Source of the DNA: Escherichia coli
GTDB lineage: Bacteria > Pseudomonadota > Gammaproteobacteria > Enterobacterales > Enterobacteriaceae
Assembly (NCBI RefSeq): GCF_003334255.1
Contig: NZ_QOWU01000034.1
Direction: 5' to 3' (one strand)
Length of the DNA stretch: 56,700 bases
Shown here: positions 568 through 21,633 of the stretch, piece after piece
How positions within the stretch are numbered: the first letter of the stretch is position 1
Layout of the letters: each line of letters starts with the position of its first letter
The notes under the pieces: generated by a model
The model's input: only the letters and a program-made list of their open reading frames with translations
Told to the model about the DNA's origin: nothing
Databases searched by the model: none
Program-made: the position numbers and the translations under genes

Positions 568-1785
568 ATGTCCCCCATTGAAAAATCCAGCAAATTAGAG
601 AATGTCTGTTATGACATCCGTGGTCCGGTGCTGAAAGAAGCAAAACGCCTGGAAGAAGAAGGTAACAAGGTACTGAAACTGAACATCGGCAACCCAGCCC
701 CGTTCGGTTTTGACGCGCCAGATGAAATCCTCGTTGACGTGATACGCAACCTGCCTACCGCTCAAGGGTATTGCGATTCCAAAGGTCTTTACTCCGCGCG
801 TAAAGCCATCATGCAGCACTACCAGGCTCGTGGCATGCGTGATGTTACCGTGGAAGATATTTACATCGGCAATGGTGTATCGGAGCTTATCGTTCAGGCA
901 ATGCAGGCATTGCTGAACAGCGGGGACGAAATGTTGGTTCCTGCACCAGATTACCCACTCTGGACCGCGGCGGTTTCGCTTTCCAGCGGTAAAGCGGTGC
1001 ATTATCTTTGCGATGAATCCTCTGACTGGTTCCCGGACCTCGATGATATTCGCGCTAAAATTACGCCTCGTACGCGTGGGATCGTTATTATCAACCCAAA
1101 TAACCCAACCGGCGCGGTATATTCCAAAGAGCTTTTAATGGAGATTGTGGAGATTGCACGTCAGCATAATCTCATTATCTTCGCCGATGAAATTTATGAC
1201 AAAATTCTCTACGACGACGCTGAGCATCACTCAATTGCGCCGCTGGCACCTGACCTGCTGACCATTACCTTTAACGGACTGTCGAAAACGTACCGCGTTG
1301 CAGGCTTCCGTCAGGGGTGGATGGTGTTGAACGGGCCGAAAAAACACGCCAAAGGCTACATCGAAGGTCTGGAAATGCTGGCTTCAATGCGCCTGTGTGC
1401 TAACGTTCCTGCGCAACACGCCATTCAGACCGCGCTAGGTGGTTATCAGAGCATCAGTGAATTTATTACCCCTGGCGGTCGTCTTTATGAGCAGCGTAAC
1501 CGCGCGTGGGAACTGATCAACGATATTCCGGGCGTTTCCTGCGTGAAACCTCGTGGTGCGCTGTATATGTTCCCGAAAATCGACGCCAAACGCTTTAACA
1601 TTCACGACGATCAGAAAATGGTGCTGGATTTCCTGTTGCAGGAAAAAGTTCTGTTGGTGCAAGGGACGGCATTCAACTGGCCGTGGCCGGATCACTTCCG
1701 CATTGTCACGCTACCGCGTGTCGATGATATCGAGCTGTCTTTGAGCAAGTTCGCGCGTTTCCTTTCTGGTTATCATCAGCTGTAA
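568..1785 (+). CDS. alaA: Glutamate-pyruvate aminotransferase AlaA (PLP-dependent class I aminotransferase)
   Basis: ATG at 568; 405-aa ORF with aminotransferase class I fold features (NGLSKTY lysine region); protein recognised as AlaA/YfbQ. Confidence 0.93.
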   Translation: MSPIEKSSKLENVCYDIRGPVLKEAKRLEEEGNKVLKLNIGNPAPFGFDAPDEILVDVIRNLPTAQGYCDSKGLYSARKAIMQHYQARGMRDVTVEDIYIGNGVSELIVQAMQALLNSGDEMLVPAPDYPLWTAAVSLSSGKAVHYLCDESSDWFPDLDDIRAKITPRTRGIVIINPNNPTGAVYSKELLMEIVEIARQHNLIIFADEIYDKILYDDAEHHSIAPLAPDLLTITFNGLSKTYRVAGFRQGWMVLNGPKKHAKGYIEGLEMLASMRLCANVPAQHAIQTALGGYQSISEFITPGGRLYEQRNRAWELINDIPGVSCVKPRGALYMFPKIDAKRFNIHDDQKMVLDFLLQEKVLLVQGTAFNWPWPDHFRIVTLPRVDDIELSLSKFARFLSGYHQL

Positions 1786-5106: not shown

Positions 5107-5679
<573 letters not shown>

Positions 5680-10087: not shown

Positions 10088-11608
10088 ATGTCCGCAATCA
10101 CTGAATCCAAACCAACAAGAAGATGGGCAATGCCCGATACGTTGGTGATTATCTTTTTTGTTGCTATTTTAACCAGCCTTGCCACCTGGGTAGTTCCGGT
10201 GGGGATGTTTGACAGTCAGGAAGTGCAGTATCAGGTTGATGGTCAAACAAAAACACGCAAAGTCGTAGATCCACACTCATTTCGCATTCTGACTAACGAA
10301 GCAGGCGAACCTGAGTATCACCGCGTACAGCTGTTCACGACGGGCGATGAACGCCCGGGCCTGATGAACTTCCCGTTTGAAGGATTAACCTCAGGATCGA
10401 AATACGGGACAGCCGTTGGCATCATCATGTTTATGCTGGTGATTGGCGGCGCGTTTGGCATTGTGATGCGTACAGGAACCATTGATAACGGTATCCTGGC
10501 GCTTATTCGCCATACCCGCGGGAATGAAATTCTCTTTATTCCTGCGCTGTTTATTCTGTTTTCACTTGGCGGCGCGGTATTTGGTATGGGAGAAGAGGCC
10601 GTCGCCTTTGCCATTATCATCGCACCGCTAATGGTCCGGCTGGGCTATGACAGTATTACCACCGTCCTGGTGACCTATATTGCCACGCAAATCGGTTTTG
10701 CCAGTTCGTGGATGAACCCGTTTTGTGTGGTCGTTGCTCAGGGGATTGCCGGCGTTCCGGTGCTTTCTGGCTCCGGGTTGCGCATCGTGGTGTGGGTTAT
10801 CGCCACTCTGATTGGCCTGATCTTTACCATGGTGTACGCCTCACGAGTGAAAAAGAATCCTCTTCTGTCACGCGTGCATGAGTCCGACCGCTTCTTTCGT
10901 GAAAAGCAGGCTGATGTTGAACAACGTCCGTTTACCTTTGGTGACTGGCTGGTATTGATTGTCCTGACCGCCGTAATGGTCTGGGTGATTTGGGGCGTGA
11001 TCGTTAATGCCTGGTTTATTCCAGAAATTGCCAGCCAGTTCTTCACCATGGGTCTGGTGATTGGCATCATCGGCGTTGTTTTCCGCCTTAACGGCATGAC
11101 GGTTAATACCATGGCTTCATCCTTTACCGAAGGGGCGCGAATGATGATCGCCCCTGCCCTGCTGGTGGGTTTCGCCAAAGGGATTTTGCTGCTGGTCGGT
11201 AATGGTGAAGCGGGTGATGCCAGCGTGTTAAATACCATCCTCAACAGCATTGCCAATGCCATTAGCGGTCTGGACAACGCGGTCGCGGCCTGGTTTATGT
11301 TGCTCTTCCAGGCGGTATTTAATTTCTTCGTGACGTCCGGTTCTGGTCAGGCGGCGTTAACCATGCCGTTACTGGCACCGCTTGGCGATCTGGTCGGTGT
11401 TAACCGTCAGGTTACCGTGCTGGCGTTCCAGTTTGGTGATGGCTTCAGTCACATCATTTACCCAACCTCAGCGTCGTTAATGGCAACGCTCGGTGTGTGC
11501 AGGGTGGACTTCCGTAACTGGCTGAAGGTGGGCGCGACCCTACTTGGACTGCTGTTTATTATGTCCAGCGTCGTAGTGATCGGCGCTCAGTTGATGGGCT
11601 ACCACTAA
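10088..11608 (+). CDS. yfcC: YfcC-family inner-membrane transporter (putative)
   Basis: Polytopic membrane protein; start trimmed to ATG 10088 (506 aa) with AAGGGA RBS about 10 nt upstream; the track ORF starts at an upstream GTG. Confidence 0.85.
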   Translation: MSAITESKPTRRWAMPDTLVIIFFVAILTSLATWVVPVGMFDSQEVQYQVDGQTKTRKVVDPHSFRILTNEAGEPEYHRVQLFTTGDERPGLMNFPFEGLTSGSKYGTAVGIIMFMLVIGGAFGIVMRTGTIDNGILALIRHTRGNEILFIPALFILFSLGGAVFGMGEEAVAFAIIIAPLMVRLGYDSITTVLVTYIATQIGFASSWMNPFCVVVAQGIAGVPVLSGSGLRIVVWVIATLIGLIFTMVYASRVKKNPLLSRVHESDRFFREKQADVEQRPFTFGDWLVLIVLTAVMVWVIWGVIVNAWFIPEIASQFFTMGLVIGIIGVVFRLNGMTVNTMASSFTEGARMMIAPALLVGFAKGILLLVGNGEAGDASVLNTILNSIANAISGLDNAVAAWFMLLFQAVFNFFVTSGSGQAALTMPLLAPLGDLVGVNRQVTVLAFQFGDGFSHIIYPTSASLMATLGVCRVDFRNWLKVGATLLGLLFIMSSVVVIGAQLMGYH

Positions 11609-15655: not shown

Positions 15656-16546
15656 TTAGTGGCTTTGCGCGATAAGATCGTCTGGTGAAAGTCGGGTCAC
15701 CATCATAACTAACTCTCTGTCTAAACCTCTATCCAGCATCTCCTGAGCAATACGCAGGGCTTCTTCGTGTTTGCCCTGCATTGCGCCTTCTTCACGTAAT
15801 CTGTCAGCAATGGTCATCAGTTTCTCCTTTTCTTGTGGTGCGCGTTCCGCTATCTCACCAATAAATGCACGAAAACGCTGGGCATCCCCTGTTTGTAATA
15901 CGTAATTAAACAGGGCTTTTAGCTGTCTGTCATTAGTGTTCCCTGTAACTAGCAGCGAAACAATTTGGTCGACTAATCCCAACAGATCGCGCTGACGAAT
16001 ATGTTTCTGAATTAACTCCAACAGCGCCATTTTGCGGTGTTGCATAATCTCGTCATCCGGCACCACGGTAATATCCACCAACGGAAAAGCCGATGAATAT
16101 ATTTTGCGGGCTATAGCAGGCTCGGCAAATTCATCAAGCCAGCAGAGTGAATAAGGATAAGGACTTCTGCAACCATGATAAAACAGCATCGGGAGCACCA
16201 ATGGAAGCTCTTTATAGCCCGCATCAAGATGGTTTTGCATTGCCGCAATGGAATAACGCATCATGCGAAAAGCCATTAATTCTTCCGGCTTACTTTGGTG
16301 CTCTATCACTACATAAATATAACCCACTCCCTCCTGCGTTTTCACAGACCACAAGAGGTCGGAATAATATTGCCGCAGGTCTTCATCAATAAAACTGTTT
16401 GGTTCCAGTTTAAGCGTCGTTAAATCACACAGTTTGCGCAGCGGCGCGGGAAGATGAATATCAATAAAATCCCGCGCGGTGTCTGGATGGCGTAAAAAAG
16501 ATTTAAATACCGCATCATGCGGCGTGGAAGTTGTCGATATTGTCAT
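15656..16546 (-). CDS. rpnB: Recombination-promoting nuclease RpnB (PD-(D/E)XK transposase-like, Rpn/YhgA family)
   Basis: 296-aa ORF recognised as YfcI/RpnB; stand-alone gene flanked by its own intergenic regions. Confidence 0.85.
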
Positions 16547-16704
16547 GGCGTTCCGTCACCCCTCAAATTTAAGATGACGCGACAATAACCACGATTAACA
16601 CCCAATGCAGCAGGCAGTTTTTATCTTTGGACAGCGAATTCAGAAGTATTTTTAGCGGACTGTAACTTTTACATTTCAGCGGAAGCTGACTCGCAAATTC
16701 CCCA

Positions 16705-16736
16705 TGAAAATACTCCGGCAGCGTTAGCCACCGGAG
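16705..16736 (-). terminator. Rho-independent terminator of the hisJQMP operon
   Basis: On the minus strand ctccggtggctaacgctgccggag is followed by tatttt, directly after the hisP stop. Confidence 0.75.
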
Positions 16737-16742
16737 AGGAAA

Positions 16743-17516
16743 TTATTTCAGCGATCCCTTAAGGAACCGTTGCAGACGAGGGCTTTGCGGGTTGCCAAAT
16801 AACTGCTCCGGCGCGCCCTCTTCTTCTATTTTCCCCTGATGGAGGAAAATGACATGAGTAGAAACATGGCGAGCAAAGCCCATTTCGTGAGTCACTACCA
16901 CCATGGTTTTCCCCTCTTCTGCCAGTTGCTGCATAATACGCAACACTTCGCCTACCAGTTCAGGATCGAGCGCCGAGGTAGGTTCATCAAACAGTAAAAC
17001 TTCCGGTTCCATCGCCAGCGCCCGCGCGATAGAAACACGCTGTTGCTGACCGCCGGAAAGATGCACCGGATATTTCCCCTGCGCACGTTCGTCTATCCCG
17101 ACTTTTGCCAGATACTTCACCGCCCGCTCGCGCGCTTCCTGCTTGCTCAGGCCCAACACCTGAATCGGCGCTTCCATGACGTTTTCCAGCACCGTCATAT
17201 GGCTCCAGAGATTGAAGTGCTGGAATACCATCGTCAGGCGTGTGCGCAGTAAGCGCAGTTGATTTTTATCGGCGACTTTGAGTTGACCGTCTTTGTCGCG
17301 CACCAGATTGATCGTCTGGCCATTGACCACGATCGACCCTTCACTCGGTTTTTCGAGGAAGTTAATGCAGCGCAGAAAGGTACTTTTCCCCGATCCCGAC
17401 GATCCGATGATGCTTATTACATCTCCGGCATTCGCTTGCAGTGATACCCCTTTCAGCACTTCATGTTCGCCGTAGCGTTTGTGCAAATCGATAACGTTTA
17501 ATTTATTCTCGGACAT
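16743..17516 (-). CDS. hisP: Histidine/basic amino acid ABC transporter ATP-binding protein
   Basis: 257-aa ORF with Walker [13 protein letters not shown] signature LSGGQQQR and Walker [12 protein letters not shown]. Confidence 0.95.
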
Positions 17517-17523
17517 CGTATTC

Positions 17524-18240
17524 TCAGTGCGTTGAAGAAGGTTTCACATGCTGCAACCAGCGTTTTTCCGCTCTGCGAAAGAGGCTGATCAGGACATAAG
17601 AGATGATTAAATAGAGCACCGCGGCAATGCCGAAGGCGGTAAAAGGTTGATACGTGGCGGCGTTAATATCGCGGGCTATTTTCAGCAGATCCGGCACCGT
17701 GGCAGTAAATGCCAACGCAGTAGAGTGCAGCATCAGGATCACTTCGTTGCTGTATGCCGGTAACGCAATACGCAGCGCAGAAGGCAAAATAATGCAGCGA
17801 TACATTTTAAAAGTCGAGAAGCCATAGGCTCTGGCGGCTTCAATTTCCCCATGCGGAACCGAACGGATTGCCCCAGCAAAAATCTCGGTAGTGTAAGCGC
17901 AGGTGTTAAGCGTCAGCGCCAGCACGGTACAGTTCAGGCCACTGCGGAAGAAAGCGTTAAGGAATTCGGTTCCCTTAACAATCTCAAGCGTGTACATGCC
18001 GGAATAGAACACCAGCAACTGAACATACAGCGGCGTACCGCGAAAAATATAGGTAAATAACCAGATTGGAAACTGGATGTATTTATTACTGGAGACACGA
18101 CCAATCGCCAGAAACAGCGCCAGGACTCCGCCTATCACTACCGACAAAATAAGCAGCCACAGAGTGATCGCCACACCAGTAAAGCGATAACCGTCGGTCC
18201 ACAGCAGCGGTTTCCAGTATTCATGTAAGATTTCGATCAC
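17524..18240 (-). CDS. hisM: Histidine ABC transporter permease
   Basis: 238-aa polar amino acid ABC permease; overlaps hisQ stop by 4 nt. Confidence 0.93.
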
Positions 18241-18923
18241 AGGTCAGCCCTCTTCACACCCACGGAGTAGCGGCGCTCAAGGAACAGCAGCACACCATTG
18301 GAAACAGTGGTGAAAACCAGGTAAATCACGCCACAGACGATGGCGAAATAGAACGGTTCCCAGGTACTTTTGCCTGCCAGTTGGGTGGCTTTGACCACAT
18401 CTTCCAGGCCGAGTAACGAAACCAGTGCGGTAGATTTGAGGATCACCTGCCAGTTGTTGCCAATGCCTGGCAGGGCGTAACGCATCATCGACGGAAACAT
18501 GATCCGCCGAAACACTTGCCCACGAGTAAAACCGAACGCCGTCGCCGCCTCTATATGTCCTTTCGGCACTGCCATAAAAGCACCACGGAACGTTTCGGTA
18601 AAATAAGCACCGTAGATAAAACCGAGAGTGATAATACCAGCGACCATCGGATCGATATCAATCTGCCCGACGCCCATCGCCTCCGTCACCGTGTTTAGCG
18701 CAATCTGCAAACCGTAGAAAATCAGCAGCATCAACACTAAGTCCGGCACGCCACGAATCAGCGTGGTGTACCCTTCGAAAATCAGCCCCGAAAGCCGATT
18801 TTGCGAGAGCTTACCGCCAGCGCCAATTAAACCGATGATTACAGCGAGCACTACAGAGCTGATAGCCAGCTCCAGCGTGACGAGCGCACCCTGTAAAATA
18901 ACACCTGAAAACCCATACAACAT
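18237..18923 (-). CDS. hisQ: Histidine ABC transporter permease
   Basis: 228-aa ABC permease; part of hisJQMP. Confidence 0.93.
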   Translation of the reverse strand: MLYGFSGVILQGALVTLELAISSVVLAVIIGLIGAGGKLSQNRLSGLIFEGYTTLIRGVPDLVLMLLIFYGLQIALNTVTEAMGVGQIDIDPMVAGIITLGFIYGAYFTETFRGAFMAVPKGHIEAATAFGFTRGQVFRRIMFPSMMRYALPGIGNNWQVILKSTALVSLLGLEDVVKATQLAGKSTWEPFYFAIVCGVIYLVFTTVSNGVLLFLERRYSVGVKRADL

Positions 18924-18964
18924 GCTGCCTGTCCTGTCGTGTGTGGTGAATTACCGCCTCTTGT

Positions 18965-18988
18965 CTCCCTCCGGTTACCCGAAGGGAG
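18965..18988 (-). promoter_or_regulatory. Intercistronic hisJ-hisQ stem-loop (REP-like mRNA-stabilising hairpin)
   Basis: ctccctccgg-ttac-ccgaagggag near-perfect inverted repeat between the hisJ stop and hisQ start; the homologous Salmonella interval is the classic intercistronic palindrome. Confidence 0.6.
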
Positions 18989-19012
18989 CGGGCTTTCTTT
19001 CACCGATGGCGA

Positions 19013-19795
19013 TTAGCCACCATAAACATCAAAATCGAAGTACTTTTTCGCTAATTTCTCGTAAGTACCGTCAGCGCGCATTTCGGCAAAGGCTTTGTTC
19101 AGTGCTTCGCGCAGTTCGTTATCTTCTTTACGCAGGCCCATGCCGGTCCCTACGCCAAACAGTTTTTCATCTTTAACAGACGGGCCACCGAATTTGTAAT
19201 CTTTACCGACAGGTTGTTTGAGGAAACCTTCGCTGGCAGCGACCTCATCCTGGAACGCGGCATCAATACGTCCGGCAGTCAGGTCAGAATAAATGTTGTC
19301 CTGCCCCTGATACGAGACGATTTCAATGCCTTTTGGTGCCCAATGTTCATTACCGAACGTCTCCTGGGTGGTGCCCTGCAATACGCCTACCCGTTTGCCT
19401 TTCAGCGACTCGACTGTCGGCTGAATGTCAGAATTTTTCGCCACCACCAAACGAGAATCGGCAGCGTACAGTTTGTCGGTGAAGGCTATTTCTTGCTGAC
19501 GTTTTTCCGTAATGGAAAGCGATGACATGATGGCGTCAATCTTCTTCGCTTTTAAGGACGGGATTAACGCATCCAGCGGATTTTCGACAAACGTACATTG
19601 CGTATTGATGCGTTTGCATAATTCCTTTGCCAGATCGATATCGAAGCCAACCAGTTCGCCTTGTGAATTTTTTGATTCAAATGGCGCATAGGTCGGGTCG
19701 GTACCGATGCGGATGTTTTGCGGAATCGCAGCAAACGCCGCAGTTGCGCTGGAGAAGGCCAGAACCAGAGAGAGCGATAGCACCAGTTTTTTCAT
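19013..19795 (-). CDS. hisJ: Histidine-binding periplasmic protein
   Basis: 260-aa ORF with signal peptide and periplasmic binding-protein fold; paralogous to argT immediately upstream. Confidence 0.95.
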
Positions 19796-20015
19796 AATGT
19801 CCTCAACTGACAGTCTTTTTATAGGGAATATTTACAGGTTTGTTACACTTATCGTGCCATAAAATTGACCATCAAGGCAAAATATCCCGCCCCGTTAGAC
19901 GTATTATTTTTCATTAAAAATGCTTAAGTATGCATTTCAATGCACCACGATAGTGCAACAAACCTGGCGTGCACCATGATGATCATTCCATCAGGTACAG
20001 CTTCCCAGCGACGTA

Positions 20016-20798
20016 TCAGTCACCGTAGACATTAAAGTCGAAATACTTTTTCGCCATCTTGTCGTAGGTGCCGTCCTGACGCAGCTCGCCAAGCGCCTTA
20101 TTGAAGGCAGCCGTCAGTTCAGCATCATCTTTACGTAGCCCTACACCGGTGCCATCACCGAAGTATTTTTTGTCTTTTACTGATGAGCCAGCAAAGGCGA
20201 AATCTTTACCAGCAGGTTGCTTGAGGAATCCTTCGCTGGCAGCAACTTCATCTTGTAACGCAGCATCCAGACGTCCTGCAGCCAGATCGGAATAGACCAA
20301 ATCCTGGTTGGCATAGGCCACCACATCCACGCCTTTACTACGCCAGGTCTCGTTAGCGTAAGCTTCCTGGGTTGATCCCTGCAGCACACCAACATGTTTA
20401 CCTTTCAGTGAATCCAGCGTTGGCTGAATCGGTGAACCTTTGGCCGCAATCAAACGAGAATCTGCGGCGTACAGCTTGTCGGAGAAGGCAATCTCCTGCT
20501 GACGTTTATCGGTAATGGAAAGCGACGAAATAATAGCGTCGATTTTTTTCGCTTTCAGTGAGGGGATCAGCGCGTCAAAGTCACTGGCAACCCAGGTACA
20601 TTTCACCTGCATCCGTTTGCACATCTCGTTACCGAGATCGATATCAAAGCCAACAAAATCACCTTTAGCATCTTTCGATGAGAACGGTGCGTAGGTGGTA
20701 TCGGTTCCGATACGTACCGTCTCCGGTAGCGCCGCATAGCTGGAAGCCGCTGTGGAGAGACCGACTAACAAAGACAGAGCGAGAATCGACTTCTTCAT
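20016..20798 (-). CDS. argT: Lysine/arginine/ornithine-binding periplasmic protein
   Basis: 260-aa ORF, signal peptide, closely similar to HisJ; recognised as ArgT. Confidence 0.95.
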
Positions 20799-20866
20799 AC
20801 ATAACCCTCAAGTGAAAATGGCTTTTTTATGTTGTGTATTGTGTTGTGTGTTTGCAGGCTCTTTCA

Positions 20867-20882
20867 TGCAGGTCTTATGCCA
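20867..20882 (-). promoter_or_regulatory. Sigma54 (-24/-12) promoter for argT
   Basis: Minus-strand TGGCATAAGACCTGCA: GG and GC separated by exactly 10 nt, matching TGGCAC-N5-TTGCA; about 70 nt upstream of the argT ATG. Confidence 0.7.
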
Positions 20883-21029
20883 TCTTGACGACAACAGTAA
20901 CATTCAACGTTAAATATGTTAATAAGACGTTGCATTATTGTCCTGAAGTTGAAGATAGCAGGTATAGCGGTTGAATCGCAGCGTTTCGATTGAATGGCAG
21001 AAACAAAATGTCGAGGATTTGATCGCGGT

Positions 21030-21056
21030 TGCAAAATTGCCCTGAAACAGGGCAAC
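21030..21056 (-). terminator. Rho-independent terminator after ubiX
   Basis: Minus-strand ttgccctgtttcagggcaa hairpin followed by ttttgc, directly after the ubiX stop. Confidence 0.8.
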
Positions 21057-21063
21057 AGCGGAG

Positions 21064-21633
21064 TTATGCGCCCTGCCAGCGGGCAAAGAGATCTTCAGGA
21101 AGGGTTATCGCAAACTGGTCAAGAACACGATTAACCGTCTGATTTATCACATCATCAAGGGATTGCGGGCGATGATAAAACGCCGGAACGGGAGGCATAA
21201 TCACCGCACCGATTTCTGCCGCCTGAGTCATTAAACGCAGATGGCCTAAGTGCAATGGTGTTTCACGCACGCAGAGCACCAACGGGCGACGCTCTTTCAG
21301 CACCACATCTGCCGCACGGGTCAGTAAGCCATCAGTATAGCTATGGACAATGCCGGAAAGGGTTTTGATTGAACAGGGTAAAATCACCATCCCCAGCGTC
21401 TGGAAAGAACCGGAAGAGATGCTGGCGGCAATATCGCGCGCATCGTGCGTGACATCGGCTAATGCCTGCACTTCGCGCAGAGAAAAATCCGTTTCGAGGG
21501 ATAAGGTCTGGCGCGCTGCCTGGCTCATCACCAGATGCGTTTCGATATCTGTGACATCGCGCAGAACCTGTAATAAGCGCACGCCATAAATCGCGCCGCT
21601 GGCACCGCTGATGCCTACAATGAGTCGTTTCAT
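21064..21633 (-). CDS. ubiX: Flavin prenyltransferase UbiX
   Basis: 189-aa flavoprotein ORF with N-terminal GISGASG motif. Confidence 0.93.
   Translation of the reverse strand: MKRLIVGISGASGAIYGVRLLQVLRDVTDIETHLVMSQAARQTLSLETDFSLREVQALADVTHDARDIAASISSGSFQTLGMVILPCSIKTLSGIVHSYTDGLLTRAADVVLKERRPLVLCVRETPLHLGHLRLMTQAAEIGAVIMPPVPAFYHRPQSLDDVINQTVNRVLDQFAITLPEDLFARWQGA

Follow-up and report, generated by a model that had tools for sequence, protein, structure and literature searches.

The argT–hisJQMP locus of Escherichia coli: tandem paralogous binding proteins and one shared permease

This study concerns two neighbouring genes, argT and hisJ, and the permease genes that follow them in a 56.7-kb stretch of Escherichia coli DNA (contig NZ_QOWU01000034.1), which spans alaA to yfdF and is called the window below. 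The products of argT and hisJ are periplasmic binding proteins for lysine, arginine and ornithine (LAO) and for histidine, respectively. We describe the genes and control elements of the locus and then consider how the tandem pair may have arisen.

Gene content of the locus and the two binding proteins

The six-frame list of open reading frames (ORFs) holds two 260-amino-acid ORFs on the minus strand, hisJ and argT, separated by a gap of exactly 220 bp (19796–20015). A repeat search of the window returned the two genes as a direct repeat, 1003 bp from start to start, and three further genes lie on the same strand on the 3′ side of hisJ:

20016–20798, minus strand: argT, LAO-binding periplasmic protein, 260 amino acids (NCBIfam NF011586; RefSeq)
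19013–19795, minus strand: hisJ, histidine-binding periplasmic protein, 260 amino acids, first gene of hisJQMP (NCBIfam NF011965; RefSeq)
18237–18923, minus strand: hisQ, permease subunit (NF011714, 478.6 bits; RefSeq)
17524–18240, minus strand: hisM, permease subunit, with a GTG start and a 4-bp overlap with hisQ (NF011651, 464.7 bits; RefSeq)
16743–17516, minus strand: hisP, ATP-binding subunit (NF007908, 576.1 bits; RefSeq)

The surrounding 4.4-kb segment (16700–21100) is 100% identical to E. coli K-12 MG1655, in which RefSeq names the genes hisP, hisM, hisQ, hisJ, argT, ubiX, purF and cvpA. It was matched in all 5426 complete E. coli genomes, with a coverage of at least 80% in 5425 of them. 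All five proteins exceed the NCBIfam equivalog cut-offs, and the HisP translation carries the Walker A, signature (LSGGQQQR) and Walker B motifs. Two permease genes and one ATPase gene thus stand side by side on one strand, the arrangement of a HisJ/ArgT–HisQMP2 importer. The locus is almost certainly argT–hisJQMP of E. coli K-12, that is, the histidine/LAO permease itself. Every membership feature that could be tested was present, and the identification is contradicted by none of the evidence found; failures are confined to the optional idea of a canonical σ54 promoter of hisJ in E. coli (a GC at −12 and a chromatin immunoprecipitation signal). The corresponding HisJ–LAO/HisQMP2 system of Salmonella Typhimurium and E. 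coli is this same system, with matching gene order, 260-amino-acid precursors, about 70% identity and the Phe52/Leu52 difference described below, and nothing of substance differs between the two species. Its genes, structures and regulators have already been described, and it has been an ordinary textbook case since the early 1980s. The importer was studied by the Ames laboratory, and the locus belongs to the founding models of ATP-binding cassette (ABC) transporter biology. As a discovery it matters little, and it serves here as a positive control, showing that a genuine pair of tandem paralogues can be recognised from the letters alone.

The original prediction, made from the letters of the window, had proposed two same-strand binding proteins of 260 amino acids in tandem across a 220-bp spacer; the ORF list bears out these coordinates and sizes exactly, and NCBIfam and RefSeq agree with the gene names it gave and with a single downstream permease/ATPase set. 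It had also described hisJ as fused to the permease genes, a wording that needs correction: an 89-bp spacer with a stable hairpin lies between hisJ and hisQ, and there is no fusion. In the literature, hisJQMP is treated as one transcription unit with its own promoter (PMC6640053).

Sequence comparison by BLASTP revealed 175 identities over 259 residues (68%) between ArgT and HisJ, with 84% positives, no gaps and E = 9e-139, close to the published value of 70% for these two proteins, both of which use HisQMP2 (PMC6640053). The duplication and divergence that had been predicted for the pair are thereby upheld by the pairwise alignment, which gave none of the low identity that would have spoken for independent origins. 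The two proteins are clearly told apart by family models, since each passes the cut-off solely on its own NCBIfam model and scores best there: HisJ reaches 599.4 bits on NF011965 (cut-off 459) and 434.7 bits on the ArgT model, under the cut-off of 440, and ArgT reaches 582.5 bits on NF011586 (cut-off 440) and 425.2 bits on the HisJ model, under the cut-off of 459. Residues 23–260 of HisJ align end to end with the histidine-binding chains 2m8c and 1hpb/1hsl of the PDB, and the same residues of ArgT with the LAO chains 1laf, 2lao, 1lst and others. Residues 1–22 of both precursors look like a typical hydrophobic leader ending in A-x-A, which would leave mature proteins of 238 amino acids that start at residue 23. 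Taken together, the pair shows the features of a tandem duplicate, namely adjacency, a shared strand, full-length similarity and separate orthologue clades.

Ten of the 12 ligand-pocket positions listed are identical between HisJ and ArgT (D11, Y14, S69, S70, S72, R77, L117, T121, Q122 and D161, in mature numbering). The two that differ are Leu52 of HisJ against Phe52 of ArgT, and Thr120 of HisJ against Ser120 of ArgT. In the LAO protein, the ligand stacks between Tyr14 and Phe52 (PMC3102756), and "HisJ L52 vs LAOBP F52" has been named among the key residues (PMC10609312). Judging from the aligned sequences, the difference in specificity would map mainly to residue 52. The proposal of two specificities on one transporter fits this Leu52/Phe52 split, found on inspecting the ligand residues, together with the published HisQ/HisM/HisP receptor that is common to both, about 70% identical, binding proteins (PMC3102756). 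Both ArgT and HisJ would be secreted to the periplasm, where each would bind the basic amino acids that it recognises and pass them to the single HisQ–HisM–HisP2 ABC importer encoded 3′ of hisJ, the docking step being taken from the literature.

A similar design is found in artPIQM–artJ of E. coli, where the paralogous proteins ArtI and ArtJ are proposed to serve one ArtQMP2 under ArgR control (PMC6640053). ArtJ and ArtI are also the next-best NCBIfam matches for ArgT and HisJ, at 177–191 bits and thus far under their cut-offs of 510 and 522. The art genes differ in that they form a separate paralogue group and in their arrangement: artI is located within the operon, and artJ follows downstream under a promoter of its own.

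Control regions of argT and hisJQMP

The regulatory features of the locus are the following:

20867–20882, minus strand: argT σ54 promoter (−24/−12) TGGCATAAGACCTGCA, 69 nt before the ATG, with GG and GC at canonical spacing
20831–20854, minus strand: C/A-rich argT leader CAAACACACAACACAAUACACAAC, a likely GcvB R1 target judged from its sequence, in a block kept in argT and single-copy leaders
19796–20015, minus strand: 220-bp argT–hisJ spacer, comprising the control region of hisJ together with the argT transcript's 3′ end (from sequence, fold and published peaks)
19941–19957, palindrome, no strand assigned: NtrC-like site TGCACTATCGTGGTGCA, one mismatch to TGCACCA-N3-TGGTGCA
19913–19940, minus strand: candidate σ70 promoter of hisJQMP, TTGAAA-16-TTTAAT, a published string placed by reading the sequence
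19844–19859, minus strand: σ54-like box TGGCACGATAAGTGTA upstream of hisJ, with a conserved −24 element and GT instead of GC at −12 in Escherichia
18924–19012, minus strand: 89-bp hisJ–hisQ spacer, a G+C-rich hairpin followed by a C/A-rich stretch
16713–16736, minus strand: terminator-like hairpin after hisP, a 10-pair stem with 7 G-C pairs and the tail TATTTTCATG

The argT promoter TGGCATAAGACCTGCA is the same as the motif published for E. coli argT from σ54 chromatin immunoprecipitation sequencing (ChIP-seq), with its centre at genome position 2425890 (PMC4591121), and is identical to the Salmonella argT promoter (PMC3844500). The centre of this motif gives the offset used throughout, in which the window coordinate equals the genome coordinate minus 2405015. 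A search of the 330 nt preceding K-12 argT gave no NtrC site with up to two mismatches, and the published NtrC ChIP-seq peak at argT is weak (5.4), weaker than that at hisJQMP (PMC4066584). Downstream of the promoter, published targets of the small RNA GcvB include argT, through its R1 seed, and hisQ, which is repressed via the hisJ–hisQ region (PMC9299463). The C/A-rich stretches in the argT leader and at 18935–18948 fit this published control of both genes, and GcvB likely pairs within 20831–20854 of the argT leader, the exact site having been placed by inference.

The control region of hisJ lies in the 220-bp spacer. The palindrome TGCACTATCGTGGTGCA is the sole match with at most one mismatch to the NtrC consensus in the window. 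The published NtrC ChIP-seq peak assigned to hisJQMP (2424941–2425021, enrichment 23.7; PMC4066584) converts to 19926–20006, in the promoter-distal half of the spacer, and covers this site. The spacer site may possibly act as an enhancer shared by both promoters, including that of argT about 920 bp upstream. A SELEX study (systematic evolution of ligands by exponential enrichment) with the RpoD holoenzyme reported the promoter TTGAAA-16-TTTAAT between argT and hisJ (PMC3946193). In agreement, hisJQMP has been assigned a σ70 promoter weakly repressed by ArgR, and argT a σ54/NtrC promoter, and both PhisJ–lacZ fusions and in vitro transcription with ArgR have been published (PMC6640053). The original prediction of a promoter in this spacer is thus borne out by the SELEX promoter, the NtrC site under the ChIP-seq peak and the ArgR-regulated PhisJ. 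With the ARG-box consensus TGAATWWWWATTCA and up to two mismatches, no match was obtained in the spacer. The minus-strand block TGCATACTTAAGCA at 19921–19934 is among the most conserved in the spacer and reads TGCATA(C/G)TTAAGCA in most Enterobacteriaceae species; located between the −35 and −10 elements of the reported σ70 promoter, it is an unconfirmed candidate for an ARG box.

The second promoter-like element in the spacer, the σ54-like box TGGCACGATAAGTGTA, is less uniform. Its −24 half ATGGCACGATAA is kept across Enterobacteriaceae, and its −12 half varies, with GC in about half of the species. The canonical form (GG/GC) is absent from K-12 and present in Citrobacter, Kluyvera, Pseudocitrobacter and Superficieibacter. 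There is no entry for hisJ in the E. coli σ54 ChIP-seq tables and supplements (PMC4591121). As the pspA promoter likewise has TTGT at −12 (PMC4591121), the GT box of hisJ could still function in E. coli.

The spacer RNA folds strongly (z-score −5.3), which is explained by a long-range inverted repeat (19835–19849 and 19952–19966; 15 nt, 93% complementary, 102 nt apart, or about 22 nt when one indel is allowed). Through this repeat, the region just after the hisJ σ54-like box pairs with the NtrC site's left half. The repeat was considered as a conserved RNA element and rejected, because it is Escherichia-specific, occurring in E. coli and E. albertii and not in other genera. Other genera have different spacer hairpins, which mostly derive from palindromic TGCACC...GGTGCA sequences. 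In many genera (locus L061 of Escherichia sp. ESNIH1, loci L053 and L006, and others), a run of A residues leads into a strong hairpin, such as AAAAAAAAGCGTCCGGCAGGGCAGAATATTTTGCCTTGCCGGGC, just upstream of the hisJ −24 box. The arrangement resembles an intrinsic terminator on the opposite strand and is weakened in K-12 (CGGGGCGGGATATTTTGCCTTGATGG).

The 89-bp spacer between hisJ and hisQ has a fold of −33.2 kcal/mol (z = −3.3), formed by a 10-bp hairpin with a GNRA-type GUAA loop and a core at 18965–18988. No T-run follows this hairpin; instead, the C/A-rich stretch at 18935–18948 places CACCACACACGACA after it, just before the hisQ ribosome-binding site. The hairpin probably protects the hisJ message or partly terminates transcription behind it, which would let the binding protein exceed the membrane subunits. 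The E. coli spacer thus holds a plain G+C-rich hairpin; that of Salmonella has been described as carrying repetitive extragenic palindromic (REP) sequences.

In the resulting picture, argT is expressed from its own σ54 promoter through a C/A-rich leader targeted by GcvB, and hisJQMP from its own control region in the spacer, with a σ70 promoter, an NtrC site and ArgR control. ArgT would then rely on HisQMP supplied by the hisJ promoter, by transcripts reading through from argT, or by both. Since NtrC acts at both control regions, nitrogen limitation would be expected to raise the two routes of expression in parallel.

Origin of the tandem pair across Enterobacterales

To place the pair in a taxonomic context, contigs from one genome per species were scanned for a DNA pattern encoding the C-terminal motif KKYFDF(N/D)VYG, which returned at least 120 loci. 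All counts of gene order, residue 52, tree membership and promoters given here were drawn from loci among the matches listed. Within these, every Enterobacteriaceae locus with enough flanking sequence has the order ubiX–argT–hisJ–hisQMP (27 gene pairs). Genera with the tandem pair are Escherichia, Citrobacter, Enterobacter, Kluyvera, Pluralibacter, Cedecea, Siccibacter, Shimwellia, Superficieibacter, Pseudescherichia, Pseudocitrobacter, Phytobacter and Mangrovibacter, and the pair was seen in Enterobacteriaceae loci only. In the sister families, 16 of 16 loci have one binding-protein gene between ubiX and hisQ (Erwinia, Pantoea, Tatumella, Dickeya, Pectobacterium, Brenneria, Yersinia, Serratia, Rahnella and Hafnia). 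These ubiX–gene–hisQMP operons of Erwiniaceae, Pectobacteriaceae, Yersiniaceae and Hafniaceae share with E. coli the flanks, the permease genes, a σ54 box, a C/A-rich leader that is homologous to the argT leader, and the Phe52 pocket. With one binding-protein gene at the locus, they lack the sharing of tasks between two binding proteins that E. coli shows.

In a neighbour-joining tree, HisJ and ArgT proteins formed separate clades with bootstrap values of 1.00 and 0.99, respectively. Residue 52 follows the same division: Leu52 is present in all 27 HisJ proteins and nowhere else, and Phe52 in all 27 ArgT proteins, all 16 single-copy proteins and two betaproteobacterial relatives. The promoters show a related pattern, with a σ54 box upstream of argT in 25 of 25 Enterobacteriaceae loci and upstream of the single-copy gene in 13 of 16. 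An nhmmer profile built from the single-copy promoter and leader matched all 25 argT upstream regions, reaching the last profile position in 19 and stopping at most seven positions short of it in the others. The same profile matched six of 24 hisJ upstream regions, in the promoter box only, and none of 49 shuffled controls. Since argT keeps the ancestral σ54 promoter and leader, it is the permease-attached hisJ that looks derived.

Only in Enterobacter sp. R1 and Shimwellia are the regions upstream of argT and hisJ significantly similar, and the similarity is confined to the σ54 box. The canonical box TGGCATGAAACCTGCA lies upstream of hisJ in both (5565–5580 of locus L077 in Enterobacter sp. 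R1; locus L090 in Shimwellia). It also precedes the single-copy gene of Pantoea sp. IMH, and other single-copy genera have close variants. In front of hisJ, this box may represent the ancestral promoter in a less decayed state, or it may have come from local conversion.

The most economical account of these data is a single tandem duplication, after which argT stayed conservative in pocket, promoter and leader and hisJ became the derived, but operon-linked, copy. In its full form, this reading starts from a single LAO-like ancestor with Phe52, controlled by σ54 and GcvB and located between ubiX and hisQMP, which underwent a single duplication on the Enterobacteriaceae stem. The newcomer hisJ would then have gained Leu52, and with it a preference for histidine, together with a rebuilt control region consisting of an NtrC site, ArgR/σ70 control and a σ54 box that has a noncanonical −12 element in Escherichia. 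We consider the chances of this joint reading to be about even. It would add a modest but testable footnote on which duplicate innovates and on how regulation is repartitioned after tandem duplication.

Several observations weaken this reading. The scan finds only genes with one C-terminal motif, so that "single-copy" means one gene at the ubiX–hisQ locus, and a second paralogue elsewhere was not searched for. The sister relation of HisJ and ArgT is not recovered in the neighbour-joining tree, where it has a bootstrap value of 0.02. Upstream of K-12 argT and hisJ, the local alignment score is 18, compared with 17.2 ± 2.3 for shuffled sequences; being no better than the shuffles, it does not demonstrate for E. 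coli that the promoter was carried along in the duplication. As for the control of hisJ in E. coli itself, a σ70 consensus scan called no promoter in either the argT–hisJ or the hisJ–hisQ spacer, so the evidence for the former comes from the literature and from reading the motif, and the published ArgR boxes could not be placed in the spacer with confidence.

The unresolved, star-like tree would also suit a duplication older than Enterobacterales, after which each single-copy family lost one paralogue and neither copy would be ancestral-like, as would the finding that single-copy proteins are about equally distant from the two paralogues (67–77% and 65–73% identity). We regard such an older origin as unlikely, because it needs several independent losses, each of which left the order ubiX–gene–hisQ, and because Phe52 in every single-copy protein, the σ54 box before most of their genes and the match of their promoter/leader profile to argT upstream regions all run counter to it. 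Both paralogues are, moreover, nearer to the single-copy group (distances of 0.316 for HisJ and 0.307 for ArgT) than to one another (0.376), which is what descent of the two from an ancestor of that kind would produce. A recent duplication, or recent gene conversion between the two genes, has next to no standing. Local stretches at codons ~81–120 and 171–200 do reach 82–87% nucleotide identity, but they code for the most conserved protein segments, and their third-position identity is still 0.5–0.65. Across the whole genes, nucleotide identity is 69% (77%, 85% and 44% at codon positions 1, 2 and 3), only 87 of the 175 residues that are identical share a codon, and no identical run exceeds 14 nt. 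The third positions and the short runs indicate an old duplication with no visible recent conversion tract, and the codon-position identities and the two clean orthologue clades across 27 species rule recent conversion out. Convergence of two proteins of independent origin can be dismissed altogether in view of 68% identity over 259 ungapped residues, the E-value of the alignment, equal length and a common fold family.

A further question is whether argT and hisJQMP form one five-gene operon transcribed from the argT promoter alone, with the spacer as a structured, promoterless intercistronic region. Several papers write of an "argT-hisJQMP operon" (including PMC9299463), and one published study drove argT–hisJQMP from a single replaced argT promoter. 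The strong fold of the spacer and the empty σ70 scan point the same way, as does the region directly after argT, where no canonical hairpin with a T-run is present; the consensus scan returned only weak terminator-like sites in this spacer. Set against this are the RpoD SELEX promoter between the two genes (PMC3946193), an NtrC peak in the spacer that is stronger than that at argT (PMC4066584), and the published PhisJ–lacZ fusions and in vitro transcription with ArgR (PMC6640053), which make a single unit quite improbable. Read-through from argT may add to the internal promoter without replacing it.

Other features in the window

Upstream of argT, a minus-strand hairpin at 21033–21055 (TTGCCCTG-TTT-CAGGGCAA, followed by TTTT) lies 9 nt 3′ of the ubiX stop codon. 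It is likely the intrinsic terminator of the cvpA–purF–ubiX unit, with a T-run slightly under the threshold of the scan. At the other end of the locus, rpnB (15656–16546, minus strand), which encodes a recombination-promoting nuclease of a transposase-like family, lies directly downstream of the hisP terminator. No RNA family was found when the window in its full length was scanned with Rfam at gathering thresholds.

A σ54-type box TGGCACCTTGGGTGCA is also located at 54011–54026 on the minus strand, 70 nt upstream of yfcZ in the yfcZ–fadL spacer, and a published RpoN SELEX peak at genome position 2458968, which corresponds to window position 53953, lies beside it. Two other matches to the loose σ54 pattern, in alaA (1244–1259, plus strand) and yfcC (11246–11261, minus strand), are probably due to chance, as 1.7 are expected by chance in the window. 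Finally, the fimbrial usher gene yfcU (45363–48008, minus strand), part of the yfcOPQRSUV fimbrial cluster, is annotated in K-12 as a pseudogene with an internal stop.

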